Source: an uncultured virus (IMG/VR IMGVR_UViG_3300036857_000120)
Taxonomy: Duplodnaviria; Heunggongvirae; Uroviricota; Caudoviricetes
DNA length: 20,000 nucleotides
Reading direction: 5' to 3' (one strand)
Virus record (IMG/VR): IMGVR_UViG_3300036857_000120
The notes under the pieces are model-generated. The model had not been told where the DNA came from. It did no database searches and saw nothing but the letters and a program-made list of their open reading frames with translations. A program made the translations under genes and the position numbers. This document shows positions 384 to 20,000 of the stretch, one piece after another. Within the stretch, counting starts at the first letter, position 1, and each line of letters opens with the position of its first letter.

Positions 384-967
384 CCCTCCCGATCACGTCG
401 CGGAACGAATTGCCGCCGATCCAGCCGGTCAATTGGGCGGGCTTGCCGCGCGAGTATCTCAACGCCGGAGAGTTGGAGATCATCATCGCCCTGGTTCGCT
501 CCATCGATCCGAAGATCATGGTCGAGATCGGGCTCGCGGCCGGAAGGACGGCGAAAGCAATCCTCCGCGAGCTTCCGGATCTGGAGCGGTATATCGGCGT
601 CGACACCGATCCCGGATATCGCACGAAACTGTCGAGCCAATGGACCGAGCGCGGCGCAAATCCCGGTCATCTCGCGCTCGCCGATTCGCGCTTTGACCGA
701 TGGCTTCTGCCGCGCGGATCCCTCGATCTCATTGCGGATGATTTCCCGGAGATCGACGCGATGTTTATCGACGGCGATCATTCGAGCGAGGCGGTCCGCC
801 ACGATAGCAATCTCGCGCGTTCCGTCGTGCGGCCGGGAGGGATCATCCTCTGGCACGACTACCACAATCACGGCGTCGAGGTGACGCGCGTCCTCGAGCT
901 CGACCGCGATCTCGGTTGCGATATCCGCCACGTCGAGGGGACTTGGCTGGCATACGAAAGGCGATGA
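377..967 (+). CDS. Class I SAM-dependent methyltransferase (Methyltransf_24-like)
   Basis: Motifs VEIGLAAGRT, YIGVD, FIDGDHS and VRPGGIILWHDY. ATG 377 overlaps the upstream stop (ATGTTGA). The ORF-track extension 5-376 overlaps the glycosyltransferase and is rejected. Confidence 0.85.
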   Translation: MLTLPITSRNELPPIQPVNWAGLPREYLNAGELEIIIALVRSIDPKIMVEIGLAAGRTAKAILRELPDLERYIGVDTDPGYRTKLSSQWTERGANPGHLALADSRFDRWLLPRGSLDLIADDFPEIDAMFIDGDHSSEAVRHDSNLARSVVRPGGIILWHDYHNHGVEVTRVLELDRDLGCDIRHVEGTWLAYERR

Positions 968-2034: not shown

Positions 2035-2147
2035 GCGCGGTACGGTGCGGCGGAGATTGGCGCGGCTGGCGATGCGACGGGCCGGAAGCCGCAGTTTAGA
2101 TCATTCAAATCGCTTGCGGTAGGACGGTCCCCGTCGCGGCGGGAAAC

Positions 2148-2189
2148 GGGGGGCGGGCGTCCTCGTGTCCTCCTGGACGTTCGCTCCCC
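2148..2189 (+). ncRNA. Candidate structured RNA: 15-bp stem with a CCUCCU-containing loop
   Basis: GGGGGGCGGGCGTCC (2148-2162) pairs with GGACGTTCGCTCCCC (2175-2189) using three G-U pairs that only form on the + strand. The loop is TCGTGTCCTCCT. Confidence 0.4.
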
Positions 2190-2195
2190 ACCGAT

Positions 2196-2243
2196 AAAAA
2201 AAGCGCCGCAGTCCGGGGAGGCCAATCCGACGGACCGCGGCGC
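2196..2243 (-). terminator. Putative intrinsic terminator on the minus strand
   Basis: 13-bp inverted repeat 2203-2215 / 2231-2243. Its single + strand A-C mismatch becomes a G-U pair on the minus strand, followed there by U7 (A run 2196-2202). The 15-nt loop is long for a terminator. Confidence 0.5.
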
Positions 2244-2358
2244 AGGGCCGATCCCGTTCCGTGCGGCGGTCGAGGATCGGCGGGCTCTATGGACAGAGCG
2301 CGCGGACGCTAGGCCGATTCGCCGGATGCCAGCAACCCGGACGCGGGAGGGTTTCCCC

Positions 2359-4674
2359 ATGCCGATGAAGCCGCACAAGGGCGAGAGCGAGTCGGAATTC
2401 ATGAACCGATGCGTCCCGGAGATGCTCGCGTCGGACAGTAGTCGGAGCAATGAGCAAGCCGTCGCGATCTGTGCCGACATTTGGGACCGCCGCGACAAGT
2501 CGGAGATCCGTCAACCTCCTCCGGTCGATCCGGGCGAGAGCCATGGCGAATATATCGACCGTTGCGTCGAGCAATTGGTCGACGAGGAGGACCTCGACGA
2601 GAGCGAGGCCGAAGATATTTGCGAAATGGAATGGGAGAACCGCATGACGACGCCGGTCATCACGAAGACTCACGCCGACGCGAGCGCGGGCGATCCGCTG
2701 TCCTTCGTTCTCTCCGATGCAACGCCGGATCGTTACGGCGACGTCATCGTCGTCGACGGGTGGCAACTCGGAAACTTCAAAAAAAATCCGGTCGCACTGT
2801 TTAGCCACGACCCGAAATTCATCGTCGGCCGATGGAAAAATCTCCGCGTCGAGAGCAATGGTCTCCGCGGCGATCTGGAGCTCGCGCGCGAGGGGACGTC
2901 GGATCGGATCGACGAGATCCGTCGTCTCGTCGAGGCCGGGATCCTCAAAGCGGTCTCCGTCGGTTTCAAGCCGCTCGAGCACGAGCCTATCGACAAGGAA
3001 GATCCTTGGGGCGGCGTGCGCTACACCAAATCCGAGCTAGTCGAGACTTCACTCGTGGCCGTTCCCGCAAATCCAAACGCGCTCGCGGTCGCGAAAAGTT
3101 TCGGCGTTTCTCCCGACACCTTGCGGCTCGTCTTCGCCAAGCATGGCACGGAAGACGAGACGACCAGGCGGCGGGACCTCCGCGCCAAGCATGGCGAATC
3201 GCAGCATCGAAACGACAGGAGGGGAGCGATGACGCTCGCCCAACGCATCCAGAATATCGAGGCGTCGATTGTCGCCAAGCGCGACGCGCTCGACGCGCTA
3301 CTCGCGAAGATGGACGACACCGACGTCAAGGACGCCGAGCTTACCGAGATGAACGATCTCAACGCCGATCTGGCTCGCCTGGAGAGGGCGCACGCCGGAT
3401 TGATCGAATCCGAGAAGCGTCTCGCGAAGGGCACCGACGGCGGCGGCAACGGCGACAACCGGAGTCGTGAGCTCACCGTCGTTCATGACCAGCGTCGCCC
3501 CACCAACGGCAACGGCCAGGAGCGCCGCGAGGAGATCAGAACTCCGGCCGTACATTCGCGCGGCAAGCCGAAGGACTTCACGCTCGTCGATCTCCTCGCC
3601 CGCGCGGGCGTGGTGACGATCCGCGCGAAGGAATGGAACATCCCCATGGAGGCCGCACGCGCGCGCATCTATGGCGATGACCTCGAGACCCGCGAGGTTT
3701 GCGACATTGTCTGTCGGTCCGCGGTCGCTCCGGCGATGACGACGGTCACCGGATGGGCGGCCGAGCTCGTCCAGCCGCGTTACGAGGCGATGCTCCCGCT
3801 CCTCATGCCGAGAGCATTGTTGACGCGGCTCGCTCCTCGCGGCCTCTCGCTCGACTTCGGCACCGCGGGCAAGATCGTCATCCCGGGTCGCCAGCGCACG
3901 CCGGCGCTCGCCGGATCCTTCGTCGGCGAAGGAATGCCGATCCCCGTCCGTCAAGGCGCGTTCACGTCGATCCAATTCACGAGAAAGAAGGTCGGCGTCA
4001 TCTCCGTCTGGACGAAGGAAATGGAAGACGCGAGCACGCCAGCCATCGAGGGCGTGATCCGCGAGGCGATCCAGGACGACACCAGCGTCGTCGTCGATAG
4101 CATCTTGATCGACGCCAACGCCGCGACCGTGATCCGGCCCGCCGGTCTTCTCAACGGCGTTGCCGCGCTCACGGCGACGACCGGCGGCGGACTCAACGCG
4201 CTCGTCGGCGATATCCTCCAACTCGTCGGCGCGATCACGACCGCGAGCTATGGCAATATCCGCAATCTCGTCTGGCTCGTGAATCCGGCGCAAGTCCTCT
4301 CCGCTTCCTTGACCGGCGCGGCGGCGACCGGCGTCTATCCGTTCAAGGAGGAGATCAGTCGCGGCACGCTCGCGAATATTCCGTTTATCGACTCGGCGAC
4401 CGTCCCGGCGAAGACGATGATCCTCGTCGACGCCGCGGACTTCGTCTCCATCGGCGGAGGCGCGCCGCGCTTTGATATCTCGGATTCTGCCACGATTCAC
4501 ATGGAGGACACGTCTCCGGCCGAGCTTGTCGGCACCGGCTCGCCCGGGACCGTCGCCTCGCCGCAACGGTCGCTGTTCCAGACCGACTCGCTCGCCCTCC
4601 GGATGGTCATGCCCTTGAATTGGGCGATGCGTCGTACCGGCATGGTCGCCTGGACTCAAAACGTAACGTGGTAA
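2359..4674 (+). CDS. Fused HK97-type prohead protease / major capsid protein with an N-terminal duplicated Cys/Trp module
   Basis: SD GGGAGG at 2345-2350 before ATG 2359. Protease motifs DRYGDVI, KKNPVALFSHD, GILKAVSVGF and ELVETSLVAVPANPNAL. These are followed by a coiled-coil, delta-like segment (MTLAQRIQNIEASIVAKRDAL...) and a capsid domain (FVGEGMPIPV, KKVGVISVWTKEM, RPAGLLNGV, RSLFQTDSLALRM). Confidence 0.92.
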   Translation: MPMKPHKGESESEFMNRCVPEMLASDSSRSNEQAVAICADIWDRRDKSEIRQPPPVDPGESHGEYIDRCVEQLVDEEDLDESEAEDICEMEWENRMTTPVITKTHADASAGDPLSFVLSDATPDRYGDVIVVDGWQLGNFKKNPVALFSHDPKFIVGRWKNLRVESNGLRGDLELAREGTSDRIDEIRRLVEAGILKAVSVGFKPLEHEPIDKEDPWGGVRYTKSELVETSLVAVPANPNALAVAKSFGVSPDTLRLVFAKHGTEDETTRRRDLRAKHGESQHRNDRRGAMTLAQRIQNIEASIVAKRDALDALLAKMDDTDVKDAELTEMNDLNADLARLERAHAGLIESEKRLAKGTDGGGNGDNRSRELTVVHDQRRPTNGNGQERREEIRTPAVHSRGKPKDFTLVDLLARAGVVTIRAKEWNIPMEAARARIYGDDLETREVCDIVCRSAVAPAMTTVTGWAAELVQPRYEAMLPLLMPRALLTRLAPRGLSLDFGTAGKIVIPGRQRTPALAGSFVGEGMPIPVRQGAFTSIQFTRKKVGVISVWTKEMEDASTPAIEGVIREAIQDDTSVVVDSILIDANAATVIRPAGLLNGVAALTATTGGGLNALVGDILQLVGAITTASYGNIRNLVWLVNPAQVLSASLTGAAATGVYPFKEEISRGTLANIPFIDSATVPAKTMILVDAADFVSIGGGAPRFDISDSATIHMEDTSPAELVGTGSPGTVASPQRSLFQTDSLALRMVMPLNWAMRRTGMVAWTQNVTW

Positions 4675-4734
4675 AACCCGCGGCCTAGGTCGCGAGTTGA
4701 AGGGCTGGAGACGGGTCGCATCCCGCGGCCCGTC
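4675..4734 (+). promoter_or_regulatory. Two stem-loops directly after the capsid stop (possible mRNA stabiliser or attenuator)
   Basis: AACCCGCGGC-CTAG-GTCGCGAGTT (4675-4698, imperfect) and GACGGGTCGC-ATCCC-GCGGCCCGTC (4710-4734, 10 bp with one G-U). No U-tract follows. Confidence 0.4.
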
Positions 4735-4757
4735 AATCCACAACAGGAGACGAAGAC

Positions 4758-5066
4758 ATGACAGACGATCCCGCCACCGAAGCCGCGCGCAAGCGCGTCG
4801 CCGAAGACAAGGAGCTCGTCGAGCGTTCGCGCGCGGAATATGCCGAGCGCACGAAGGGCAAGCCAACTCCGACGCAAGAGGAGTGCGATCTCGCCGTCTC
4901 CGGCGCGCACGTCGTCGAGAAGGAGGACGACGGATCCGGACCGGACCCGTCCGATCCGCGCAATCGGGAGGCGCATCAACGCCACCAGACGGCCCGCCCC
5001 GCGCCCGCGAGCGGCGGATATGCAACGCGGCAGACGACGCCGCGGCCGACGACGCGCTCCGAATAA
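4758..5066 (+). CDS. Small charged hypothetical head-region protein
   Basis: SD CAGGAG at about 4744-4749. Fills the gap between capsid and portal, and its TAA overlaps the portal ATG (TAATG). Confidence 0.75.
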   Translation: MTDDPATEAARKRVAEDKELVERSRAEYAERTKGKPTPTQEECDLAVSGAHVVEKEDDGSGPDPSDPRNREAHQRHQTARPAPASGGYATRQTTPRPTTRSE

Positions 5067-6547
5067 TGAACGCGCTCGCTCGCATCGCGCGAGTCCTCGC
5101 TCCCTTCGTCGCGAAAGCGGCGGAGGGAGAGTTTCGTCCTGGGCCGTACTATCTCCCGATCAGCGGGGGATATCTCCCGGACGGCGTTCCGACGAACTTC
5201 TGGCAATGCGCCATCGATCCGCAAGGGAGCGGCGCGCGCTCCGCGATGGTCGAGGCATGCGTCTCCGCCTATAGCCAGACCGTCGCAATGTGTCCGGGCA
5301 ATCACTGGCGCTCGAATTCAAAGGGCGGCCGGGATCGCGTCGACAATTCCGCATTGATGCGGATCATGCGCCATCCGAATGACTATTCGTCGATCTCCGA
5401 CTTCATGCTCAACGCGACGCGCATGCTCTACCTCGAGGGCAACGCCTATGCGCTCGCTCTGCGGAATTCGCGTTTCGAGGTCGACTCGCTTCATCTCATG
5501 GATTCGCGCCAGTCATATCCGCAGATCGCGGAGACCGGCGACGTGTTCTATCATCTCGCCGGGAACGAGATCATCCAGCGTCGGCTCGACATGATGGGCG
5601 GCGGGAAATTGATCGTCCCGCAACGCGACGTCATGCATATCCATTTGCACAATGATCGGCGGCAACCGTTCCCGATCCGCGGCGAGTCCCCGCTCTTGGC
5701 CGCGCTCGCGGAGATGGCGGCGACGGACGCGATCAAACAACAGCAAATCCAATTTTACATAAACCAGGCGCGGCCCTCCGCCGTGCTCTCGACCGATCTC
5801 GTCCTCCCGCGCGAGAAGGTCGCCGAGCTCCGTCAAATGTGGATGGAGCAAGCGAAGGGCCTCGACGGATGCGGCCCGGGCGGCGTCCCCATTCTCACGG
5901 CCGGACTCAAGGTCCAGCCATGGGCGGTCGTCGGCAAGGACGCGCAAGTCGCCGAGGTCATGAAGATCAGCAATGACCAGATCGCGCTTGCGTTCCGCAT
6001 CCCGCTCCAGATCCTAGGGCTCGCGTCGACCGCCTATCAATCGACCGAGGCGCTCATGCAATTGTGGATCGCGAGCGGTCTCGGGTTTGCGCTCAATCAT
6101 ATCGAGGAGAGTTTCGGTCTCCTGTTCGGATTGAAGGGCGTCCCCGACGAATATCTCGAGCTCGATACGTCGGCGCTCCTTCGCTCCATGTTCAAGGATC
6201 GGATCGAGGGACTCGCGCGCGCGGTGCAAGGCGGGATCCTCGCGCCGAATGAAGCGCGCAACCTTGAAGGATATGACGACGTGAAATTCGGGGACGAGCC
6301 TCGTGTCCAGCAGCAAGTCGTCCCATTGTCAGCTGCCGCGTCGATTCCAGTGAAGCCTCCAGGCGCTCCGGGTCCCGGCGCGCATCCGCCCGCTCCTCCC
6401 GCTCCCGGCGCTCCTCCGTCTGCCGCGGGCGAAGGAGATCAACCGAAGGACTACGACGACAATGTCCGACGGAACATCGCTCGAAGCCTTATCGCCTCCG
6501 CCGACGAACACCGCAGACGACGCACGGCGGCTCTCCGTGCTCAATGA
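5066..6547 (+). CDS. HK97-family phage portal protein
   Basis: VEACVSAYSQTVA, HPNDY...F...LYLEGNAYAL, VMHIH, GESPL, FYINQARPSAVL, IALAFRIP and GILAPNEARNLEGY, plus a Pro-rich C-terminal tail. Start at ATG 5066 by translational coupling; the ORF-track extension from 4697 is rejected. Confidence 0.92.
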   Translation: MNALARIARVLAPFVAKAAEGEFRPGPYYLPISGGYLPDGVPTNFWQCAIDPQGSGARSAMVEACVSAYSQTVAMCPGNHWRSNSKGGRDRVDNSALMRIMRHPNDYSSISDFMLNATRMLYLEGNAYALALRNSRFEVDSLHLMDSRQSYPQIAETGDVFYHLAGNEIIQRRLDMMGGGKLIVPQRDVMHIHLHNDRRQPFPIRGESPLLAALAEMAATDAIKQQQIQFYINQARPSAVLSTDLVLPREKVAELRQMWMEQAKGLDGCGPGGVPILTAGLKVQPWAVVGKDAQVAEVMKISNDQIALAFRIPLQILGLASTAYQSTEALMQLWIASGLGFALNHIEESFGLLFGLKGVPDEYLELDTSALLRSMFKDRIEGLARAVQGGILAPNEARNLEGYDDVKFGDEPRVQQQVVPLSAAASIPVKPPGAPGPGAHPPAPPAPGAPPSAAGEGDQPKDYDDNVRRNIARSLIASADEHRRRRTAALRAQ

Positions 6548-7892
6548 CGGATTGCGCGACGCGCTAGGCGAAACGATCCAGATCCTCCGGGAGCAATGGG
6601 AGCGCGAATATGCGCTGATGGAGATGCATGCGCGCACGACGCTCGCCGAGCTTCGCGCGCAACAGGTCGAGCGGCTCGCCGCGCTCGACGCCGCATCGCG
6701 CGTGATGATGGAGGAGCTCGGCGCAAGGGTCACGGCGCGGCTCGCACAAGTGAAGGACGGCGCGCCGGGAGCCGAGGGGCCAGCGGGTCCCGTCGGTCCC
6801 ATCGGCGAGAAGGGAGATCGCGGCGATGCGGGAGAACAGGGGCCAGCGGGTCCAGCGGGCGATCCGGGAAGGCAAGGCGATCCGGGCGCGAAGGGCGATG
6901 CGGGAGCAATGGGAGATCGCGGCGCGGACGGTCCTCCTGGAGCCGTCGGGCCTGTCGGTCCGTCTGGTCCTCCGGGCGAGGTCGGGCCAGCGGGCACGAG
7001 CGGCGAGCGAGGTCCCGACGGTCCTCCCGGCGAGCGCGGAGAAAAGGGAGACCCCGGCGACGTCGGCGCTCCCGGCGCGAAGGGCGAGACCGGAGATCGC
7101 GGCGCTCCCGGCGAGCGCGGAGAGGCGGGGCCGGAAGGTCCTACCGGAGCCACAGGGGCGGCCGGAGAAGCCGGTCCCGCGGGGCCGCAGGGGGAGAAGG
7201 GGGACCAAGGTCCCGAAGGGCCTCCGGGCCGTCCTGGAGAAGCGGGCGCGGCCGGTCCGGGCGGAGCCGAAGGTCCCGCGGGAGCCGCGGGTGACGTCGG
7301 TCCAGCGGGTCCGCGCGGCCTCGTCGGCGAGCGGGGAGAGATCGGACCAGCGGGGCCGGAAGGGCCTCCCGGGCCGGTCGGCGTTCTCCCGGCCGTAACG
7401 GCATTCGAGGCGGAGCGGGTCTATTACCGCGGCGACGTCGTCGCGCATAAGGGCTCGACGTTCCAGGCGCGCAAGGACACCGGCCAAGCGCCGCCGCACG
7501 GCGACTGGATCCCGCTCGCGTTCCGCGGCGTCGACGGCGTCTCGCCGAAGCCGCGCGGGACCTGGACGGCGACGGAGGCATATGCCGCGCTCGATATCGT
7601 CGCCAGCGACGGCGCATCGTTCATCGCGCTCCGCGATCTCCCCGGTCCGCTCCCGGGCGAGGGCTGGCAACTCCTCGTCCGCCAAGGTCGGATCGGACGA
7701 GCGGGGCCGCAGGGCGAGCCGGGGCCGAAGGGCGAGCGCGGAGATCCGGGCGCGCCCGCGCCGTCGATCATCGGATGGAAGCTCGACCGCGAGACCTATC
7801 GCGCGACGCCGATCCTCTCCGATGGCAAGCGCGGACCAGTGCTCGAGCTCCGCGGCCTGTTCGAACAATTCCAATCGGAGACGCGGGCATGA
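6462..7892 (+). CDS. Collagen-like protein (N-terminal coiled coil, 70 GXY triplets, two small beta modules, short second GXY run)
   Basis: GXY is uninterrupted from 6759 to 7388. It is followed by FEAERVYYRGDVVAHKGSTFQA...GDW and GTWTATEAYAALDIVASDGASFIA...GWQLL (resembling CBM5/12-type repeats) and about 8 further triplets. Start uncertain: ATG 6462 with AAGGA upstream, or GTG 6537. Confidence 0.85.
   Translation: MSDGTSLEALSPPPTNTADDARRLSVLNDGLRDALGETIQILREQWEREYALMEMHARTTLAELRAQQVERLAALDAASRVMMEELGARVTARLAQVKDGAPGAEGPAGPVGPIGEKGDRGDAGEQGPAGPAGDPGRQGDPGAKGDAGAMGDRGADGPPGAVGPVGPSGPPGEVGPAGTSGERGPDGPPGERGEKGDPGDVGAPGAKGETGDRGAPGERGEAGPEGPTGATGAAGEAGPAGPQGEKGDQGPEGPPGRPGEAGAAGPGGAEGPAGAAGDVGPAGPRGLVGERGEIGPAGPEGPPGPVGVLPAVTAFEAERVYYRGDVVAHKGSTFQARKDTGQAPPHGDWIPLAFRGVDGVSPKPRGTWTATEAYAALDIVASDGASFIALRDLPGPLPGEGWQLLVRQGRIGRAGPQGEPGPKGERGDPGAPAPSIIGWKLDRETYRATPILSDGKRGPVLELRGLFEQFQSETRA
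6759..7388 (+). repeat. Collagen Gly-X-Y repeat region (9-nt periodicity, 70 triplets)
   Basis: Counted from the translation, GAP GAE GPA ... GPP GPV GVL, with no interruption. Confidence 0.95.
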
Positions 7893-8092
7893 GCTTGCGC
7901 CAGGTCCTCCTCCAGTCCGCGCGCGTGGCCGAGCTTCGTCATCGTGCCGACGATCTCGCGCGCGCCGCGCGTCCGCCCGCGCGCATCGTATTGACCGGCG
8001 ATCCCAAGCGCGATCGGCGGCGTCTCGGTCTCCTCCTCCTGGACGAGCGCCGCAAAAATGCGAAACTCCGCGCGACCATCGGAGAGGAGTGA
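7889..8092 (+). CDS. Small basic hypothetical protein
   Basis: ATGA overlap with the collagen stop, GGAG at 7877-7880; MSLRQVLLQSARVAELR...ATIGEE. Confidence 0.6.
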   Translation: MSLRQVLLQSARVAELRHRADDLARAARPPARIVLTGDPKRDRRRLGLLLLDERRKNAKLRATIGEE

Positions 8093-8321: not shown

Positions 8322-8984
8322 ATGCCGGAGGTCGATATCGACGTTATCACCGAGGCGACGACGCATGATTTGATCTCGCTCGCCGATCTTAAAATCATGC
8401 TCGACATTCCGGCCGGGGACACGTCGAACGATCAGCAACTCCAATTGTTGATCGAGCAAAATTCCGAGGCGATTGCGATGGAATGCAATCGCGTTTTCGG
8501 AAAGGAGGAGGTCGAGGAGCTCTGGCAATGCGTCGCCATCGAATGCTGTCCGGACGGCGCATCGAAAATCTGGCTCTCGCATTATCCGGTCGATCTCGTC
8601 GAGCCATTCACGGTCGAGAGCCCGCCCGGGACGGTCCTGGATCCGACCGCCTATCGGGTCGAGAAATGGTCGGGGAAATTGACGATCAAAGCCGGGACGT
8701 CGAGCTCGATCCTCGTCCATTACACCGGGGGCTTCGATCTGCCCGACGAGGCTCCCGGTCCGTTGCAACAGGCGACCGGCGTCCTCGTGCGAAAGTATCG
8801 CACCGAAGCCGCGGCGGCGAGCACGAGCGGGAGCGGCGTCCGCATGCTCGCGCACAAGGATTCGCGGGTCATCTATTTCTCGCCGAAGGACATGGCGGGC
8901 GGGACGACGACGAGCACCGGACCGAGCGTCGAGACCAGCGCGATCAAAAATCTCCTCTCGAAATACACGCGATATTTTATTTGA
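8322..8984 (+). CDS. Head-tail connector/adaptor (HK97 gp6 / SPP1 gp15-like)
   Basis: DLISLADLKIMLDI..D...DQQLQLLIEQNSEAIAMECNRVF, LSHYPV, VHYTGGF..P...P..LQQA and C-terminal IKNLLSKY; expected position after the head genes. Confidence 0.8.
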   Translation: MPEVDIDVITEATTHDLISLADLKIMLDIPAGDTSNDQQLQLLIEQNSEAIAMECNRVFGKEEVEELWQCVAIECCPDGASKIWLSHYPVDLVEPFTVESPPGTVLDPTAYRVEKWSGKLTIKAGTSSSILVHYTGGFDLPDEAPGPLQQATGVLVRKYRTEAAAASTSGSGVRMLAHKDSRVIYFSPKDMAGGTTTSTGPSVETSAIKNLLSKYTRYFI

Positions 8985-11550: not shown

Positions 11551-13155
11551 ATGCCGATCTCTTTTGATGCCATTCCCGCTCAATGGCGCATGCCGCTTTT
11601 CTGGGCCGAGGTCGACCCGTCGATGGCGGGGCTTCCGATTGTGCGCGACCCGATCCTCCTGGTCGGATCGATGATCGCGGACCCGACCGACACGACGATT
11701 TATCCGACGCCGGATCCGGCGCTCCCCACGGGCGTCGTGCCAGGTATCGCCGTGCCGAACATTCCAAAGCCCATCGGCACGCAAGCGCAAGCAGATCGCG
11801 AGTACGGGATGGGGAGCGAGCTTGCTTCCATGTTCGCCGCATGCGTCGCGAACAATTTCGCGCACGAGACATGGTGCCTGCCGGTCGCGCCGCTCGCGGG
11901 ATCGGAGGCGTCGTCGGGAACGATCACCGTCGTCGCGCCGGCGACCGAGGCCGGGATGATCCATCTCTATATCGCCGGTCATCACGTCGGGATCGCCATC
12001 GGCACGACCGATCTCATTGCGGATATCGCGACGCAACTCGCCGCGGCGATCAACGCCAATCCGAAATTGCCGGTCGTCGCGACCTCTGCGGCGGCGGTCG
12101 TCACGTTGACGGCGAAGACGCGCGGAGACAACGGCGACGATATCACCGTGCAACTCAATTTCTACGGCAAGATCGGCGGCCAGGAATTGCCGCCCGGGTG
12201 TCAACTCACGTTGCCCGCGACCGGCCGCTTGACCGGCGGCGGCGGCGTGCCCGACTTCACCGTCGCGATCTCCAATCTCGGCGAGCATGCTTACGAGTAC
12301 GTCGCGCTTCCTCACACCGACTCGAATACGCTGTTCGATTGGGAACAGGAATTCGGCTTTGAGGATATCGGCCGCTGGGGCTGGATGCGTCAGCTATACG
12401 GAATGATCTTCTGTGCCAAGCGCGGCGAATATTCCGACCTCCTCCTGTGGGGAGATCCGATCACTGGCGCGACGCCGAACTTCGGACCGATCTCGGTCAT
12501 GGGCGTCGAGGAGACCGCGGCCTCGCCGGTCTATGAATGGTGCGCGGCCTATTGCGCGAAGGCCGCGCGCGCGTTGACCAATGATCCGGCGCGCCCGCTC
12601 CAGACGTTGAAGCTCAACAAGATCCTGCCGTGCCAGCGGGAGGATTCATTCATCCTGCCGGAGTTGAATTCGCTCTCCGGCGTCGGGATCGCCACGCAAA
12701 AGATCGGCTCCGACGGACAGCCGATGGTCATGCGCGATACGACGACCTATCAACTCAATCTCTACGGCCAGAGCGACGATGCCTATGAGCTTGTGACGAC
12801 CATGTCGACGCTTGCGCGGATCATCCGCAATCAGCGCCAGGTCATTACGTCGAAATTCCCGCGACACAAGCTCGCGAATGACGGGACCAGATTCGGCGTT
12901 GGTCAAAAGATCGTCACGCCGAAGATCGTCAAGGCGGAACTCGTCTCGCAGTATCGGATCGACGAATTCAACGGCCTCGTCGAAGACGTCGCGTCGTTCA
13001 AGGATCATCTCATTGTCGAGCGCGATCCCAACAATCCGAACAGGCTCAACGTCCTGTGGCCGCCCGATCTCGTGAATCAGCTGCGCGTGTATGCGGTCCT
13101 CGTTCAATTCAGACTGCAATACAACCGCGGCCAGGATCTCGAGGTCATTCGCTAG
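11551..13155 (+). CDS. Contractile tail sheath protein (Mu gpL-like)
   Basis: MPISFDAIPAQWRMPLFWAEVD, YGMGSELASM, GRWGWMRQLYG, DPARPLQTL, TTTYQLN.YG..DDAY, KFPRHKLANDGTRFG.GQ.IVTP and VERDPNNPNRLNVLWPPDLVNQLRV. Confidence 0.95.
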   Translation: MPISFDAIPAQWRMPLFWAEVDPSMAGLPIVRDPILLVGSMIADPTDTTIYPTPDPALPTGVVPGIAVPNIPKPIGTQAQADREYGMGSELASMFAACVANNFAHETWCLPVAPLAGSEASSGTITVVAPATEAGMIHLYIAGHHVGIAIGTTDLIADIATQLAAAINANPKLPVVATSAAAVVTLTAKTRGDNGDDITVQLNFYGKIGGQELPPGCQLTLPATGRLTGGGGVPDFTVAISNLGEHAYEYVALPHTDSNTLFDWEQEFGFEDIGRWGWMRQLYGMIFCAKRGEYSDLLLWGDPITGATPNFGPISVMGVEETAASPVYEWCAAYCAKAARALTNDPARPLQTLKLNKILPCQREDSFILPELNSLSGVGIATQKIGSDGQPMVMRDTTTYQLNLYGQSDDAYELVTTMSTLARIIRNQRQVITSKFPRHKLANDGTRFGVGQKIVTPKIVKAELVSQYRIDEFNGLVEDVASFKDHLIVERDPNNPNRLNVLWPPDLVNQLRVYAVLVQFRLQYNRGQDLEVIR

Positions 13156-13267: not shown

Positions 13268-13654
13268 ATGGCGCAAGCAGTCGCCGGAACGGCATTCTTC
13301 AAGGTCAACGGGAATCAACTCCCGTTGCGCGGCAACTTCACGGTCTCCTCCTCGCCCATCGAGCGGACAATGTTGGCGGGCCAGGATTACGTCCATGGCT
13401 ACCAGGAGCTTCCCCGCGTCCCCTGGATCGAGGGCGACGTGACGACGACGCAAGAATTGTCGCTCGAGGTCCTCGACGCGATGGTCGACGTCACCGTCAC
13501 GGCCGAACTTATCAACGGCAAGGTCTATGTTCTCAAGGAGGCGGCTTGCAAATCCGCCTTCGAAAACAATACGAGAGAGGGCCAGATCCGCGTCAAATTC
13601 GAGGGGACCTCGTGCGAGGAGATCGGAGGGGTCGGAGCCGGGATCGGCGCGTAA
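13268..13654 (+). CDS. Tail tube protein (Mu gpM-like)
   Basis: AGTAFFKVNGNQLPLRG, GQDYVHGYQELPRVPWIEG, TVTAELINGKVYVL and EGQIRVKFEG; follows the sheath. Confidence 0.92.
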   Translation: MAQAVAGTAFFKVNGNQLPLRGNFTVSSSPIERTMLAGQDYVHGYQELPRVPWIEGDVTTTQELSLEVLDAMVDVTVTAELINGKVYVLKEAACKSAFENNTREGQIRVKFEGTSCEEIGGVGAGIGA

Positions 13655-13680: not shown

Positions 13681-14163
13681 ATGAACGAAATGAACCGACC
13701 GCCCGTCGAGGGCGAGCCCGTCATCCATCGCACCGACGCATTGAGGCCCGACATTCCCGAAGCGCCGCCGAAGCCCGCGGCGGCGCAACCGCCAGAGCGG
13801 CCGGAGGACACGGTCGACTTCGGCGAGGACGAGGATCGGGAGTTGACGCCGGAGGAGATCGAACGAAAGGAGGCGATGGAGGATCCGCTGGCCTATCCGT
13901 TGTCGCGGCCGATCCAGGCGCACGGCGAGGAGATCAAGATCCTCCGATGGCGCGAGCCGACGGGGGCCGATATCGAGAAGGCGGGCAACCCGATCTCGAT
14001 TGAGGTCATCCCCGACACCGGACGTTATCGCGTCGCCTTCGACGAGAAAAAAATGGCCGCGATGATCTGCCAGCTTGCGTCGATCCCGCCGCATAGCGTG
14101 CGCTCGCTCCGGGCCGGAGACTGGACCGCCATCGCGACGAAAATCTTCCGTTTTTTCGCATGA
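13681..14163 (+). CDS. Tail assembly chaperone (Mu gp41 / P2 E-like)
   Basis: SD GGAGG; LSRPIQAHGEEIKILRWREPTGADI...LASIPPHSVRSLRAGDW...FF; lies between tube and tape measure. Confidence 0.85.
   Translation: MNEMNRPPVEGEPVIHRTDALRPDIPEAPPKPAAAQPPERPEDTVDFGEDEDRELTPEEIERKEAMEDPLAYPLSRPIQAHGEEIKILRWREPTGADIEKAGNPISIEVIPDTGRYRVAFDEKKMAAMICQLASIPPHSVRSLRAGDWTAIATKIFRFFA
14151..14157 (+). other. Putative -1 programmed ribosomal frameshift site T TTT TTC
   Basis: Codons CGT TTT TTC GCA TGA give an X XXY YYZ heptamer. The -1 frame continues without a stop into ORF 14160-14351. Confidence 0.7.
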
Positions 14164-14354: not shown

Positions 14355-16640
14355 ATGGCGCAAGAACAGACCATAGAGATCAAAGTCCAGTTAAGGGACG
14401 AGATCAGCAGGGCGGCGGAGCAAGCGGTCGCCAAGCTCCTCCGCTTGAACCAGGTCGATACGTCGCGCTCGACGTCGGCGATGGACAAGCTCGGCCGCGC
14501 GGCGGCGTTCGCCGGTCGGGAGATCAGGGCGATCTCGACCATTACCGGCGTCGGCGGAATTCTCGGCGCGGGCGGGATCGTCGCCGGTCTGGTCGCGGCC
14601 AAGCGATCCCTGGACGAATTCGCGCAAAGCGGAATGCGGATGCATTTCACGGCGCGCGAGCTTCGCGTCTCCGAGGGATTTCTCCGCGACTACACCGACG
14701 CATTGAAGGCCGTCGGCCAGAGCGAGGGCGAGGCCGCGAGCGGGATCCAGAGCGGGCTCCGCACACTGGAGGAGGCATGGACCGAGGGCAAAGGCTCTCG
14801 CATGTTCAAGGAGCTCGAGAAGGGCGTCGGCGATAGCGGGACCCGTCTGTTCCGCGATCTCATGCAATCCTACGGACGCGACGGTCCGGAGAAGGCGTTG
14901 CAACTCGCGCTCGACCGCATGGAGCGGATGAACCCGCGCGCGCAAGCGGCGTTCATGAAGACCATGGGATTCGGAACGGTCGGCGCGACCGAACTCCGAA
15001 AGATATTGCCGCAACTCGTCCCCGTCATCCGCATGTCGAAGGACGAGATGCTCCGGTACAACGTCGCGAACATCAATCTGGAACGGACCTGGGGCAACAT
15101 CAAAACGACAGTCGGGAATGCGCTCCTCCCGGCGTTTACCGAATTGACCAAGGCGGTCGACGAATATCTCCGCACGCCCGCGGGCAAGCAATTTCTCGAG
15201 GATATCAAACGATGGGCGACCAGCATGGCGGAGTATGTCCGCTCGCAAGGTTTTGCCGATCGGATGAAGGCGATCACCGAAGGGAGCGAGAAGCTCGTCA
15301 CCGATCTCGGCGCGGCGTTCGCCGCGGCCGACAAGGTCGTGCAAGATATGGGCGCGTCGTGGGTCGGAATATTCGAGGCCCTCGCGGCGACAAAAATCAT
15401 CACATGGCTATTCGGTTTTGGGAACGCATTGCGCTTTATCGCGCCAATGGCCGGGGTCATTGCCGCGCTGACCTGGATCCTCCGCGACCCCGAAGGCGCG
15501 GCCAAAAAATTTAAGGAATTTCGCGACTTCAATCGCAAGTCGCTTGAGGAATTGAAAAAGGAACGACCGCAGGACCCGCGCGACCTGTTCCAGACGGAGG
15601 GACCGGCCGGAGGTGTCGGGACGATCCTGCAATTGTTTTGGGACCTGTTCAAAGGGAACATCGATCTATTCCCGGAGAAGAAAAGGACCGGCGCGCTCGC
15701 GCCCGCGGGCGAGGAGAAGGGCACAATCGAGAAGCTCGCCGAGGCGGCGCAAGTCCGCTCCGCGACCGGAGGTCTAAAGGACAAGCTCGCCAATCTCGAC
15801 GACGAGCTCGCGCAATTGACCGGCTTCCTCATGATTGGAGGTCCGGACGGGACGGCGGGATCGAGCGGATATGGCGCGGGTCTCGGCGGCGAATTGAGCC
15901 GCGGCGCTTACGACACGATGTTTAAGCGAGGGCCGATGGCGGGGCAGTATGACGCCATCGTCGCCGCGGCGGCGCGCCAGGATATCTCGCCGTCATTGCT
16001 GGCCGGGATCATGGCGCTGGAATCGAAAGCGCCACAAGGCGGCCCGTTCGGAATGAGCCGCGCGACGACGACGTTCCTGAATCCCGGCGGTCTCATGGGC
16101 GGCGGGCGCGGCAATCGGACATTCATGAACTTTCCGAGCATCGAGGCCGGGATCGATAAGACGGCGGCGGTCGTCGCGAAAAATCTCCAGGCGGGCGGCG
16201 GCACATTCGAGGGGCTCGCCGAAAAATACTCGCCGTCGAAAAATCCGAAAACCGGTCTGCCATATCCAAACGATCCGCACGGCACCAATCGGCTTTGGCC
16301 GAGTCTCGTTTCGAAATTCACGTCGCAGCTCACGGATCGCGGCTTTGATCCAGGCGGGCTCCAGGACGCCGTGCCCTATACTGGCGGAAGCGCCTCGACA
16401 TTCGATGATCGTTTCGGGACGTGGAACGATGCGACACTCCGGCTCAATCACAACATCGCGCGCGCGGACGGCGCATATAAGGGGAGCGGCGAGGTCGATA
16501 TCGATATCAGCAACGTCGCGGCCTCGCCCGACGCCAGCAATCCCTCGACCCTGTTCCGGCCGTTGATCCAGGAGAAGACGCCGCAGATGGCCGCGTCCGG
16601 AAACGACCGGTCGGTCCCGTCCTATTTCAATCAGGCATGA
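14355..16640 (+). CDS. Tape-measure-like protein 1 with a C-terminal glucosaminidase (GH73) / lysozyme-like domain
   Basis: Position after the chaperones; helical Ala/Leu-rich N-half with hydrophobic segments. At about 15940-16320: IVAAAARQDISPSLLAGIMALES, NPGGLM, FPSIEAGI and LAEKYSP...NDPHGTNRLW. Confidence 0.8.
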   Translation: MAQEQTIEIKVQLRDEISRAAEQAVAKLLRLNQVDTSRSTSAMDKLGRAAAFAGREIRAISTITGVGGILGAGGIVAGLVAAKRSLDEFAQSGMRMHFTARELRVSEGFLRDYTDALKAVGQSEGEAASGIQSGLRTLEEAWTEGKGSRMFKELEKGVGDSGTRLFRDLMQSYGRDGPEKALQLALDRMERMNPRAQAAFMKTMGFGTVGATELRKILPQLVPVIRMSKDEMLRYNVANINLERTWGNIKTTVGNALLPAFTELTKAVDEYLRTPAGKQFLEDIKRWATSMAEYVRSQGFADRMKAITEGSEKLVTDLGAAFAAADKVVQDMGASWVGIFEALAATKIITWLFGFGNALRFIAPMAGVIAALTWILRDPEGAAKKFKEFRDFNRKSLEELKKERPQDPRDLFQTEGPAGGVGTILQLFWDLFKGNIDLFPEKKRTGALAPAGEEKGTIEKLAEAAQVRSATGGLKDKLANLDDELAQLTGFLMIGGPDGTAGSSGYGAGLGGELSRGAYDTMFKRGPMAGQYDAIVAAAARQDISPSLLAGIMALESKAPQGGPFGMSRATTTFLNPGGLMGGGRGNRTFMNFPSIEAGIDKTAAVVAKNLQAGGGTFEGLAEKYSPSKNPKTGLPYPNDPHGTNRLWPSLVSKFTSQLTDRGFDPGGLQDAVPYTGGSASTFDDRFGTWNDATLRLNHNIARADGAYKGSGEVDIDISNVAASPDASNPSTLFRPLIQEKTPQMAASGNDRSVPSYFNQA

Positions 16641-16646
16641 TGCGCC

Positions 16647-19600
16647 ATGGCCGGGACACCGTTCTCCGAGATTCGGATCACCGACGAGGTCTCGGCAAAA
16701 TACGAGAACATGCGGCGCGGTTTGCGCGCGCGCGATCAATCCGTCGGCTTCCCGAAAACCATCGCGGCGGTCAAGGGCCTCGAGCATTCGGTCGAGCGGC
16801 TCAATCACAGCATCGCGCGCTTCCTGGGATTGTCCGGGATCTCGACGCTCCTGGGCGCGGGGCTTGTTGGCGGGATCGTGCGCGCGACGCGCGCGATGGA
16901 GCAATTCGCGCAAGGCGGATTGCAACTGCGCTACAGCGCGAAGGAGATCGGTCTCACCGCGGAGCGATTGCGATATCTCACCGACGCAGGTCGCGTGCTC
17001 GGTATGTCGCAAGACGAGGCGCGGAGCGGGGTCGTCAATCTCGCGCGCGCGATGGAGAACCTCCGGACCGAGGGCCGCAACGCAAAGGAATTCAAGGAGC
17101 TCGCGCAAGGCAAGGGCGGCGAGGAGTTGGGCCGCAAGCTAATCCAGATCGTCAACGGTCCCGACGGGATCAATCGCGCGATGGAGTTTCTCGCGCGGCG
17201 CACGCTCCAGATGGACCAGCGCGCGCAGACGTCGATCAAAAACATATTCGCGCAACCGTCCGTCGCGTGGGCCGAAGCGTTCAATGTGAAAGGATTGCAC
17301 GAGGTCAACGAGGGCAACCTCGAGGACATGAAAAAATACTCGCTCGCATGGGTCAACCTGGAGCGCACTTGGTACAATACGAAGGTCACTCTCGGACAAG
17401 CACTCCTCCCGGCGTTCACGTCGCTCCTCAACGTCACGCAACAATATCTCAACGGACCAGGTCGAGGTCTCGTTAGGCAATTCGCCGACTGGCTCAAATC
17501 GATAAAGCCGGAGGACATTCGCGCTTTCGCGCAAGGCGTCCGCTCGTCCATGGACGCATTCGTCGAGGGCGTCAAAAAGCTCTGGCCTTGGCTCCAGGCG
17601 ATAGACAAATTCGTCACCGAAAATCTCGGCGGCTGGAAGACGATCCTCGTATCGGTCTTCGTCCCCGCGCCGATCCTCTGGCTCACGAGATTCGGCGGCG
17701 CGCTCGCCAAGATCGGCACGCTCGCATGGGTCGTCTCCGCCATCGCGGGCGTTGCGATGCTCTCGCCCGCGGCCGGAGGCGAGGCCGCGCCATTGGGCGG
17801 CGCTCCGCGTCCAGGAGCCGAGGGCGGAGGCGGCGGCGGCGGCAGAGGCGGCGACAACACTCTCCCGGAGATCACGGTCACCCCGGACGACGTCCCGATC
17901 CCGCGGCCTCGACCTCCGCAACAGCAACGGCGCGGCGATCTCGGCGGCCGGATCCAACTCGCGGGTCTAGGCATTCCGACCGGGATCACGCTTCCCGACG
18001 AGGAGGGAAACTTTCCAAGCTCCTCCGGTCGCGGGACGACGACGCGCCAGGAGATCGCGAGCCTCCGACAGGATCGCGAGATCACGAAGGATCTGTCCGC
18101 GGTCGTCGAGACCACGACGCAAAAGGTCGCCGCGCTTAACGAGGTCATCTCGAAACTCCCGGTCACCGATGCGACCGGCGCGGGCCGGATCGCGGCCATC
18201 GCCGGAGCGATCTCCAGGGGCGGCGGAGGGGGCGGCGGAGGATTCGCGCCGCGCGGCGGAGGCGGAGGAGGGAGAGAGCCAAGTCCAGGCGGGGGGCCGC
18301 GCCGGGGCGGCGGCGGAGGCCGCGGGCCACGACCGAGCCGGAGCGATCCGCAACCGCGCTCGCCATCCACGACCAGCGATCCGGGCCGACGGCCCGCGGG
18401 CGACACGACCGGCCGCATCGAAGGCGGTCAATTGCCGACGCGGCAAGAACTTGCCGACAAATCAATCCCCGCGGGCGAACGGTTTAATAACCCGTTCAAT
18501 ATGTGGCACGACAAATATGCCGAGCAACAGGGCGGCGTCCCGGGAATCAAGATCACGCCATACGACACGCCCGCGATCTTCCCTAGCAAGATGGCGGGCG
18601 CTGCCGCCGCGATCCGCAAGATGGCCGAAAGCCCGTTGTATTCGGGCAAAACGATGTGGGACTTGATCGCCCAATGGGTCGGGCACGGTACGTCCTACGC
18701 GCCGATCATCGCGAAAGCCATCGGCGTCCCGGTCACGACCAGGATCACGCCCGAATTTTTGATGAGCGAGAAGGGCCTCGAGTTTCTCAAAACGATGGCG
18801 CGCTATGAAACGAAATGGGAGCGCGCTTATCCGTTGACCGACGAGCAATGGCGCGCCGCGCGCGATGCTGCATTCAAGCGGCCAGCGGCAAATCAGCAAA
18901 ATCCGCCAGCGCAACAGAACCAACCTCCGGCGCAACAAAATCAACCGCCAGCGCAACAGAACCAAGGACCGCAACAGTCCGCCACCCAGTCGCAACCGGG
19001 CTTGATCCAATATGAAAACTTCCCGGCATTCCGGACCAGGAATAATCGGGAGGTCGAAAACTTCGTCGGCTTCCAGCGCGCGGTCCAGAATATGTCGCCG
19101 GAGTTTCGCGGGCGGATCTCGGCGGCGATGCGTGACATGCCGGAAGATGTGCGCCGGAGCTTCATCATCAATGAGGGCTGGCGCACGTTTCAATATCAAG
19201 CCTATCTCAAACGGGCTGGACGATACGCCGCGCCGCCTGGACATTCCCGCCACGAGATCGGCGAGGCTATCGACGTTGACGAGGGACCGGCGCGCGATTG
19301 GCTCCGCAAGTATGGATGGAGATATGGGATCGAAGGCATCCGCGGCGACGCTCCGCATTTCCAATTGTCGCGACGATATCGCGGACCGCCGTTCGCGGGG
19401 CAGGATCCGGGCGCGCGCCAAAAGCCGATAATCGATCCGCATAAGGTTATCTGGACGAATATGCCCGATGACGGGACCGCGCCGGAGGGACGTTTCCGCG
19501 CGCGGCAGACGCGGCACCAGATTCAGATGAAGATCAATATCCGCGGCGGTCGCAACGTGCGCGTCGGGAGCTCGTCGGACAATCTCGACATGACGGTCCA

Positions 19601-19655
19601 GCGCGAGAAAGAAATGGACCCGACCGGCGGCGGTCGCATCCAGTCCCCGGGATGA
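16647..19655 (+). CDS. Tape-measure-like protein 2 with an NNPxN lysozyme-like domain and an M15 (VanY-like) peptidase domain
   Basis: N-half is paralogous to 14355-16640, followed by Gly/Pro/Gln-rich linkers. GERFNNPFNM...AIFPS..AG...MARYE at about 18474-18870; INEGWRT..YQ...AAPPGHSRHEIGEAIDV...WL...G.RYG....DAPHFQ at about 19092-19368. Confidence 0.8.
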   Translation: MAGTPFSEIRITDEVSAKYENMRRGLRARDQSVGFPKTIAAVKGLEHSVERLNHSIARFLGLSGISTLLGAGLVGGIVRATRAMEQFAQGGLQLRYSAKEIGLTAERLRYLTDAGRVLGMSQDEARSGVVNLARAMENLRTEGRNAKEFKELAQGKGGEELGRKLIQIVNGPDGINRAMEFLARRTLQMDQRAQTSIKNIFAQPSVAWAEAFNVKGLHEVNEGNLEDMKKYSLAWVNLERTWYNTKVTLGQALLPAFTSLLNVTQQYLNGPGRGLVRQFADWLKSIKPEDIRAFAQGVRSSMDAFVEGVKKLWPWLQAIDKFVTENLGGWKTILVSVFVPAPILWLTRFGGALAKIGTLAWVVSAIAGVAMLSPAAGGEAAPLGGAPRPGAEGGGGGGGRGGDNTLPEITVTPDDVPIPRPRPPQQQRRGDLGGRIQLAGLGIPTGITLPDEEGNFPSSSGRGTTTRQEIASLRQDREITKDLSAVVETTTQKVAALNEVISKLPVTDATGAGRIAAIAGAISRGGGGGGGGFAPRGGGGGGREPSPGGGPRRGGGGGRGPRPSRSDPQPRSPSTTSDPGRRPAGDTTGRIEGGQLPTRQELADKSIPAGERFNNPFNMWHDKYAEQQGGVPGIKITPYDTPAIFPSKMAGAAAAIRKMAESPLYSGKTMWDLIAQWVGHGTSYAPIIAKAIGVPVTTRITPEFLMSEKGLEFLKTMARYETKWERAYPLTDEQWRAARDAAFKRPAANQQNPPAQQNQPPAQQNQPPAQQNQGPQQSATQSQPGLIQYENFPAFRTRNNREVENFVGFQRAVQNMSPEFRGRISAAMRDMPEDVRRSFIINEGWRTFQYQAYLKRAGRYAAPPGHSRHEIGEAIDVDEGPARDWLRKYGWRYGIEGIRGDAPHFQLSRRYRGPPFAGQDPGARQKPIIDPHKVIWTNMPDDGTAPEGRFRARQTRHQIQMKINIRGGRNVRVGSSSDNLDMTVQREKEMDPTGGGRIQSPG
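18903..18965 (+). repeat. 3 x 21-nt coding tandem repeat (PPAQQNQ)
   Basis: CCGCCAGCGCAACAGAACCAA / CCTCCGGCGCAACAAAATCAA / CCGCCAGCGCAACAGAACCAA; copies 1 and 3 are identical. Confidence 0.9.
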
Positions 19656-19659
19656 TCCC

Positions 19660-20000
19660 ATGGCCTCGATCCGCGATATCCATAACGTCTGGCGCGATGC
19701 GCTCGTCCCGGCCTCGTTCAAGGGCGCGCCGTTCCATGTCGAGACGAGCCAGCGCGCGGGCGGGCGGCGGACCGTCGTTCACACCTACCCAAAGCGCAAT
19801 GTTCCCTACTCCGAGGACATGGGCCGGGAGCCGACGCGCTGGACGTTCTCCGGATATCTCATTCATTTCGACAAGGGATTCCCGGGCAATCTCTTGTCGC
19901 AAATCGCGCAGCTCAACGCGGCGCTCGACAGCGATGACGCGGGCCTCCTGATTCATCCGTTGATCGGATCGATGCTCGTCATGTGCGAGCGATGGTCCTA
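19660..20000 (+). CDS. Mu gpN-like DNA circularisation protein, N-terminal part (runs off window)
   Basis: Translated by hand from ATG 19660: MASIRDIHNVWRDALVPASFKGAPFHVETSQRAGGRRTVVHTYPKRNVPYSEDMGR...LIHPLIG. This matches the DNA_circ_N pattern and the expected position after the tape measure. Absent from the ORF track. Confidence 0.9.
   Translation, partial: MASIRDIHNVWRDALVPASFKGAPFHVETSQRAGGRRTVVHTYPKRNVPYSEDMGREPTRWTFSGYLIHFDKGFPGNLLSQIAQLNAALDSDDAGLLIHPLIGSMLVMCERWS

Follow-up and report, generated by a model that had tools for sequence, protein, structure and literature searches.

A conserved tandem pair of tape-measure-type paralogues in an uncultured Mu-type phage family suggests a tail core of different proteins

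The stretch of DNA analysed here (the window) comprises 20,000 nucleotides (nt) of soil metagenome origin from an uncultured member of the Caudoviricetes (IMG/VR record IMGVR_UViG_3300036857_000120), and carries on its plus strand, at 14355..19655, two adjacent genes in the tape-measure place of a Mu-type contractile tail module. We report that their products, TMP1 and TMP2 (761 and 1002 amino acids, aa), are paralogues, that the tandem pair is conserved across a phage family, and that every complete pair combines one each of two C-terminal tail types. Judged by its domains, each product appears to be a complete tape-measure-type protein, with N-domain, hydrophobic segments, enzyme module and tail. 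The tandem pair suggests, short of proof, a tail core made of different proteins, and we put the probability that TMP1 and TMP2 are both packed in the same tail at roughly one half.

An earlier inspection of the letters alone (the sequence-only reading) had described the two genes as tandem paralogues whose N-halves align and are each followed by a hydrophobic segment, after which the C-halves are unrelated. Both open reading frames (ORFs) were recovered at these coordinates, and the pairwise alignment proposed as a check bears out the common ancestry of the N-halves: BLASTP aligns TMP1 residues 10-372 with TMP2 residues 8-366 at 33% identity over 368 columns (E 5e-45), the sole significant alignment between the two proteins, and the peptide matches originally quoted fall inside it. 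Hydrophobic stretches lie at equivalent positions in both proteins, those after the N-halves at residues 337-376 in TMP1 and 332-377 in TMP2 (Kyte-Doolittle scale, sliding window of 19), and are followed by glycine-rich linkers and enzyme modules. The statement on the C-halves stood in so far as BLAST finds no similarity between them, but not for their extreme tails, which appear to be two versions of one ancestral motif (see below).

Column-averaged hydrophobicity peaks at 3.35-3.8 residues in both N-domains, the 3.4-3.8 band lying above nearly all of 300 shuffles in six of eight segments; the period in TMP1 is 3.45-3.8 residues, and in three of its four segments at most 1 of 300 shuffles attained it. 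This periodicity fits a prediction of amphipathic helices. Profile matches point the same N-domains towards tail proteins: TMP1 residues 11-270 match phrog_2013 'lytic tail protein' (7.5e-9), and TMP2 matches phrog_9570 'tail length tape measure protein' through its N-domain (2.7e-12), as well as phrog_2276 (1.1e-8) and phrog_13674 (7.1e-5). The Pfam families TMP_2 and TMP_3 gave sub-cut-off matches, in orthologues only, and NCBIfam gave no match to either N-domain. A profile of TMP2 orthologues weakly matches the solved chain 9b45_a 'gp41 Tape measure protein' (E 0.0027).

The junction between the two genes is real. A Logan contig from run X2, which belongs to another sample and another study than X1, covers 16397-16845 with 0 differences, and a contig from X1, possibly the source run, likewise bridges the junction with no differences; the concern that the tandem arrangement might be an assembly artefact can thus be set aside. 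Only 6 nt part the two genes; their junction lacks a terminator-like site and the plus strand of the scanned stretch a promoter-like one, so TMP1 and TMP2 should be co-expressed. No RNA run is listed for the stretch. The two genes also share a reading frame, parted by a TGA and two codons (16638-16649). We considered a read-through fusion of TMP1 and TMP2 and rejected it, since the corresponding gaps in relatives are -1, 0, 1, 2, 4, 5 and 7 nt and the in-frame layout is therefore not conserved.

When the TMP1 N-domain was searched for exhaustively, 102 representative proteins matched at E <=0.001, 66 of them at <=1e-10, with lengths that cluster at about 700-800 and 900-1100 aa. We then scanned with an N-domain profile 41 IMG/VR loci, fetched with TMP1 and with alignments of two subgroups, which together with the window make 42 sources. 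Two tandem N-domain ORFs on one strand occur in 30 of these; the other 12 show a single N-domain ORF, and 11 of the 12 are cut by a contig end (one such locus, L021, still shows the first 80 residues of a second gene). Seventeen pairs are complete and non-identical, that is, differing in at least one residue; they represent about 15 lineages and have gene gaps of -1 to 7 nt. Identity between the N-domains of a pair is only 30-46%, so the duplication is old. This survey of synteny, also among the checks first suggested, shows the tandem pair to be conserved across the phage family, and such conservation as a pair excludes the possibility that one copy is dispensable.

The sole true single-copy locus, L040, holds tube, chaperone, one tape measure of 708 aa and gpP hub. 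Its tape-measure gene lies at 1398-3524, and the hub follows directly, without a gpN-like gene between them. At the other extreme, a metagenome scan with a third subgroup yielded three loci (L042, L043 and L044) in which the chaperone is followed by three paralogues in tandem and these by the gpP hub of an otherwise Mu-type baseplate module, where DNA_circ_N comes after the hub and not before it. In L042 (2753-10499) the paralogues measure 998, 743 and 839 aa, the middle one carrying Amidase_2. The third gene of this clade is a duplicate of the copy with the R-type tail, and each of the three orthologous groups has at least four representatives at 50% identity.

In the N-domain tree, the position-1 genes of the window's clade (11 rows, support 99/98) fall into one clade and its position-2 genes (11 rows, support 84/78) into another, and the branching of the one mirrors that of the other. 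Therefore, the duplication predates the window's clade, and both copies have been inherited together. In L025, as in the second major clade, the two copies of one genome group closer to each other, and L040 is sister to that second clade. Compared with the close relative L003, the ratio of non-synonymous to synonymous substitution rates (dN/dS) is 0.27 and 0.28 for the N-domains of TMP1 and TMP2 and 0.30 and 0.31 for their tails, against 0.11 for the sheath; it is below 0.5 in every TMP1 and TMP2 segment except the TMP2 cargo (0.55), which has been replaced between the window and L003. TMP1 and TMP2 are thus under similar purifying selection. The enzyme regions of the two proteins are 39.5% and 27% identical to those of L003 and the N-domains 88% and 82%, a far greater divergence that indicates replacement of the enzymes.

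The two N-domains also change length together in one subclade: in TMP1 and TMP2 alike the E16-W336 spacing drops from 320/316 to 309/307-308 residues, and a matched shortening of about 9-11 residues fits in-register packing. At variable columns the N-domains of one genome are more alike than those of different genomes (27.5% versus 21.4% ± 1.3%, 0 of 2000 permutations). Size compensation between the paralogues was rejected, as aligned core columns gave no negative covariation and instead the positive within-genome similarity just given.

The C-terminal tails are the most informative feature of the pair, with one Q-type and one R-type tail in 17 of 17 pairs; the Q-tailed gene comes first in the window's clade and the R-tailed gene in the second clade. 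The Q type consists of a VDIDV-like strand, then LF(R/K)P, then PQM and often a final FQ, and the R type of a KINVRG or FNNVP-like strand, then GVK, then V-x-R. The Q-type tail of TMP1 is kept across 19 orthologues and the R-type tail of TMP2 in 15 of 16 aligned orthologues, the end of P0011 being different. Profile comparison links the Q tails across the two clades (probability 89.5%, E 2e-6), cross-type comparisons between clades reach 0.1-0.2% probability, and within the second clade the Q and R tails are still alike (95.8%, E 8e-9). Among 81 full-length members we counted 36 with Q, 37 with R, 3 with both and 5 with neither, using profiles trained on the tails of the loci, so that the training tails and the classified proteins partly overlap. 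The single-copy protein of L040 and several other members have a composite tail with elements of both types; the loci of the composite-tailed proteins P0103, P0075, P0055 and P0085 were not found in IMG/VR, and the link between composite tail and single copy is L040 alone. These intermediate forms argue for a common origin of the TMP1 and TMP2 tails, which we read as two specialised versions of one ancestral tail motif. Because siphophage tape-measure C-termini dock on the hub, the two types may by analogy be specialised hub-docking ends.

Between the conserved ends, the enzyme modules are freely swapped. The sequence-only reading had assigned each protein a different cell-wall hydrolase, and for TMP1 this holds: residues 500-658 in its C-terminal part match phrog_1259 'baseplate hub subunit and tail lysozyme' (8.9e-18). 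The calls are otherwise weaker than first stated. TMP1 reaches only E 0.058 and 14.5 bits against Pfam Glucosaminidase, under the cut-off of 30.2, which its orthologue P0003 (69% identical) exceeds with 38.3 bits; TMP2 scores 22.6 bits (9.5e-5) against Pfam VanY, just under the cut-off of 25, and 28.3 bits (9.1e-7) against NCBIfam VanY, far under the cut-off of 425. The TMP1 module contains an A-L-E-S stretch whose Glu is a candidate catalytic residue of the GH73 kind, and an S-R-H-E-I-G-E-A-I-D stretch in TMP2 fits the M15/VanY zinc-ligand motif. We call TMP2 residues 815-895 'M15-like' and do not file them as a member of M15/VanY.

The middle module of TMP2 has no Pfam or PDB match, and in the protein atlas it meets only unnamed viral clusters (scores 0.91-0.92); it recurs in P0062, and the close orthologues P0009 and P0010 hold a different module there. 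TMP2 has P0009, P0010 and P0011 among its orthologues; those at 50-76% identity (best local alignment) carry Peptidase_M23 in the M15-like slot together with a different middle module. For TMP1, with P0003, P0006, P0007 and P0013 among its orthologues, the lysozyme-like region is common to only 4 of 19, and the cargo of most is unrecognised. Modules found across the family are Glucosaminidase, M23, SLT, Amidase_2, Phage_lysozyme2, CHAP and M15_4. Profile searches against solved structures returned M23 chains, weak SLT chains and one weak tape-measure chain, and single-sequence searches of the TMP1 and TMP2 C-halves gave no solved-structure match. Hydrophobic stretches vary as well: each paralogue has two in the window's clade, and the second clade has none over the threshold except one short stretch in position 1 of L027. 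Within the TMP2 linkers, GGC-type runs encode poly-glycine at 17823-17853 and 18217-18241; these runs and the linker repeats (Table 1) are possible sites of length variation.

Among the 15 lineages, 4 have a recognised module in both genes, 6 in one and 5 in none. All 4 of the first group (the window, L003, L009 and L028) pair a glycosidase with a peptidase or amidase, predicted to cut glycan and peptide respectively. The proposal that the two genes deliver complementary muralytic enzymes therefore stands for the lineages in which both cargoes can be recognised, but it does not extend to the family as a whole, for reasons given below.

Full N-domain length in both proteins, equal constraint, and distinct docking ends that always occur as a pair make one tail with the two proteins side by side the simplest reading. 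The existence of relatives with one and with three copies, the R type being the one that duplicated again, matches what a homotrimer on its way to a mixed trimer would leave behind. Both genes would be expressed from one late operon and their products handled by the single upstream chaperone. TMP1 and TMP2 would then lie together in the lumen of one contractile tail, most likely side by side as a mixed trimer, with the shared N-domain serving as ruler and chaperone-binding region. Each C-terminal tail would represent a different half of the ancestral hub-docking tail, so that the two proteins would occupy non-equivalent places in the baseplate hub and neither could be lost. On infection both would be ejected before the DNA, their hydrophobic segments entering the envelope, and the wall would be cut by the lysozyme-like glycosidase of TMP1 and by the middle module and M15-like peptidase of TMP2. 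We infer the presence of both proteins in the virion, their co-assembly and stoichiometry, hub docking and enzyme activity from comparative sequence data.

Several observations weigh against this reading. The two proteins differ by 241 residues (761 versus 1002 aa), which a simple in-register co-ruler would not predict. The matched shortening of the N-domains happened once, and in the sister lineage L026 the two spacings disagree, at 325 versus 314 residues; the within-genome similarity of the N-domains could come from lineage rate or composition effects. As for the tails, those of TMP1 and TMP2 have no detectable similarity to one another (hhalign probability 0.1%), and R tails are linked only weakly across clades (probability 19.6%, E 1.2e-3). 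A single Q-tailed clade is rejected on the N-domain tree (log-likelihood difference, delta lnL, 282; approximately unbiased test, p-AU 9e-42, for a constraint group chosen after the tree was seen), which implies either repeated duplication and tail split or exchange of N-domains between the copies by recombination. Lastly, an SLT-like middle module seems to accompany M23 in many orthologues of TMP2, so complementary cargo is no strict rule.

Going one step further, and tentatively, the tape measure of the family may be an obligate heterotrimer. An ancestral homotrimer with a composite tail, such as would be kept in L040, would have been duplicated, each copy retaining the Q or the R half; one Q chain and two R chains would assemble, and three-fold symmetry would be broken at the level of the genes. 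In one lineage the R gene would have been duplicated again to give three different chains, one for each position, and every chain would bear a wall enzyme of its own, freely exchangeable and set at its own height within the narrow lumen.

It may instead be that one paralogue is the ruler, a hub-docked homotrimer, and the other a tape-measure-derived ejection protein bearing wall enzymes, a passenger that would use the shared N-domain only for chaperone loading into the tube. The unequal lengths of 761 and 1002 aa would suit this explanation, as would the different tail types and the freely exchangeable cargo, and one structural study proposes a separate peptidase beside the tape-measure trimer of a gene transfer agent, GTA (PMC7296036). 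Yet both proteins keep the whole N-domain, at equal length and dN/dS, and both keep a conserved tail that seems to come from the same ancestral tail, neither of which a passenger would need, and we hold this explanation to be rather improbable.

Serial rulers are less plausible again. Homotrimers stacked end to end would make tail length the sum of the two; one tail type would dock on the hub, and the N-terminus of the lower trimer would receive the other. Such stacking would account for one tail of each type per pair, and for one, two or three copies, but it offers no reason for matched changes in N-domain length; moreover, with second-clade paralogues of 634-790 aa against 708 aa in the single-copy protein, the duplication would have doubled the tail.

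The sequence-only reading had left open whether the pair forms one hetero-oligomeric ruler or serves two alternative tail types, and conservation of the pair favours both proteins in one tail. If each virion used one paralogue, giving two particle types as a form of bet-hedging across hosts or growth states, the differing cargo would be readily explained. Co-expression is nonetheless expected from the 6-nt spacing, from a junction without a terminator-like site and from a scanned stretch without a plus-strand promoter-like site, the specialised tails found in 17 of 17 pairs would not be needed if either protein sufficed alone, and loss to a single copy should be common, yet only one single-copy locus was seen; we consider two alternative tails very unlikely. 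A redundant, decaying duplicate or an assembly artefact can be dismissed, given intact ORFs in all 17 complete pairs, a dN/dS below 0.5 in every segment but the replaced TMP2 cargo, a duplication as old as the within-pair identity of 30-46% indicates, and the independent run that bridges the junction.

The tail of the window phage is of the Mu-type contractile kind, and ORF calls with Pfam and PHROG matches show the plus strand to be a contiguous virion module (Table 1). The order is sheath, tube, Phage_TAC_7 chaperone, the two genes and DNA_circ_N, in keeping with the place between chaperones and gpN named by the sequence-only reading. TMP1 and TMP2 sit between the probably frameshifted chaperone and the DNA_circ_N gene, as tape measures do, and the tail module has no further tape-measure candidate. 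In L003 the gpN-like gene is followed by a GpP-like hub and then a Mu Gp45 spike. A slippery heptamer and a -1 frame ORF at the end of the chaperone gene make the classic chaperone frameshift layout; by analogy with lambda G/GT and P2 E/E' the heptamer is likely a -1 frameshift site, and the small ORF has no family match in Pfam or PHROG.

Table 1. Features of the window, with positions and strand
Feature	Position	Strand	Remarks
Methyltransferase	5-967	+	Methyltransf_24 1.1e-15; left edge, cut by window start, upstream of capsid genes
Capsid-like gene, 372 aa	916-2034	+	Phage_capsid and phrog_617 matches
Prohead protease fused to major capsid protein	2326-4674	+	Phage_capsid and phrog_617 matches
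Portal	4697-6547	+	
Collagen-like fibre	6462-7892	+	Pfam Collagen 3.4e-36, five stretches
Head-tail adaptor	8322-8984	+	
Sheath	11551-13155	+	phrog_165 4.4e-145
Tube (Tail_tube)	13268-13654	+	
Tail assembly chaperone, P2 E / Mu gp41 type	13681..14163	+	Phage_TAC_7 6.2e-9; phrog_166 3.6e-13
T-rich slippery heptamer	14150..14156	+	Read directly, just 5' of chaperone stop codon
Probable chaperone frameshift extension, 63 codons	14160..14351	+	-1 frame ORF overlapping chaperone stop
TMP1, tape-measure paralogue 1, 761 aa, Q-type tail	14355..16640	+	
TMP1 shared N-domain, residues 1-336	14355..15362	+	BLASTP vs TMP2; phrog_2013
TMP1 first hydrophobic, glycine-rich segment, residues 59-83	14529..14603	+	Kyte-Doolittle maximum 1.87
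TMP1 second hydrophobic region, residues 337-376	15363..15482	+	Kyte-Doolittle maximum 1.83
TMP1 predicted cargo, lysozyme-like / GH73-like glycosidase module, residues 500-658	15852..16328	+	phrog_1259
TMP1 C-terminal tail, Q type	16422..16637	+	VDIDI strand, then LFRP, TPQM, terminal NQA
TMP2, tape-measure paralogue 2, 1002 aa, R-type tail	16647..19655	+	
TMP2 shared N-domain, residues 1-330	16647..17636	+	
TMP2 first hydrophobic segment, residues 56-78	16812..16880	+	Kyte-Doolittle
TMP2 second hydrophobic region, residues 332-377	17640..17777	+	Kyte-Doolittle
TMP2 middle module, about residues 600-745	18444..18881	+	Matches unnamed viral clusters only
21-nt repeat x3, Pro/Gln-rich linker	18903..18965	+	Tandem Repeats Finder, score 98
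TMP2 predicted cargo, VanY / peptidase M15-like module, residues 815-895	19089..19331	+	Pfam and NCBIfam VanY
TMP2 C-terminal tail, R type	19434..19652	+	KINIRG strand, then VRV, TVQR, DPTGG
Mu gpN-like gene start	19660..20000	+	DNA_circ_N 3.4e-22; phrog_184 4.7e-27; cut by window end

The head genes of the window offer a second duplicated structural gene, the ORF at 916-2034 aligning with the capsid part of 2326-4674 at 32% identity over 337 columns (E 7e-35), and the capsid genes stand upstream of the portal, an unusual order. The collagen-repeat fibre gene lies in the GC-richest part of the window (0.743, bin 7001-8000), and its ORF, counted from the first ATG, shares 86 nt with the 3' end of the portal ORF.

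No relative turned up in 185,579 species genomes, scanned once with the TMP1 alignment and once with the sheath protein; the nearest record (G001), a fragment of 12.6 kb, breaks off within TMP1. A tblastn search of 50,697 phage records with both whole proteins and two N-domains gave one match, confined to the TMP1 lysozyme module, in a Bradyrhizobium phage BDU-MI-1 protein annotated as hypothetical (35.5% identity, 2e-12); in those records there was thus no sequence match to any cultured phage tape measure.

Phage Mu has one tape-measure gene, and its tail module comprises sheath L, tube M, chaperone gp41, tape measure gp42, gpN, gpP and gp45. The window resembles it in the order and families of sheath, Tail_tube, Phage_TAC_7, tape measure and DNA_circ_N, to which L003 adds the GpP-like hub and Mu Gp45, but differs in having two tape-measure genes, with one or three in relatives. 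In T5, the tape measure pb2 has a hydrophobic segment and a peptidase motif. Phage G gp183 is a single tape measure of 2893 aa with glucosaminidase and M23 peptidase in tandem (PMC8570332); like the window pair, it belongs to a contractile tail, is encoded 3' of frameshifted chaperones and has glycosidase and peptidase modules towards its C-terminus, but both enzymes are on one protein there, whereas the window phage spreads them over paralogues of 761 and 1002 aa.

For the siphophages JBD30, T5 and 80alpha, three tape-measure C-termini are described on the axis, docked in the baseplate hub (PMC11445458). The likeness, assessed here by sequence only, is a conserved extreme C-terminus, for which the solved arrangement in those phages is an axial trimer; the trimers there are of three identical chains from one gene. 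The solved tail tape measures covered by these sources are trimers (PMC7296036, PMC11445458), and tubes are described as polymerising around a hub-anchored tape measure (XM1 preprint). In RcGTA, a tape-measure trimer and a separate peptidoglycan peptidase have been proposed to share the channel and to leave before the DNA (PMC7296036). As in our reading of the window, the channel would hold at least two protein species, a wall hydrolase among them; the RcGTA peptidase, as described there, is a small unrelated protein and no tape-measure paralogue.

Tail modules of the Mu type, tape measures that combine wall hydrolases with hydrophobic segments (T5 pb2, TM4 and phage G gp183 type) and a separate peptidase in the channel are already known; TMP1 and TMP2 resemble the second of these in their hydrophobic segments, and TMP1 also in a hydrolase module of its C-terminal part. 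Full-text searches of the literature outside subscription journals found no description of a tail module with at least two tape-measure paralogues. To these the present case adds a compact family of Mu type in which the copy number runs from one to three, the tails have specialised into two types beside a composite-tailed single-copy relative, and enzyme cassettes are freely exchanged.

Textbooks present the tape measure as the model of a molecular ruler made from one gene, and to our knowledge three identical chains lie on the axis of every solved tail. If TMP1 and TMP2 do share one tail, the ruler and ejection core can be heteromeric, and gene duplication would be a route by which phages diversify what enters the cell wall. 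The occurrence of one, two and three copies within one family makes the question of a heteromer directly testable. Conserved ends around swappable enzyme cassettes may also be of practical interest for the engineering of tail-like particles.

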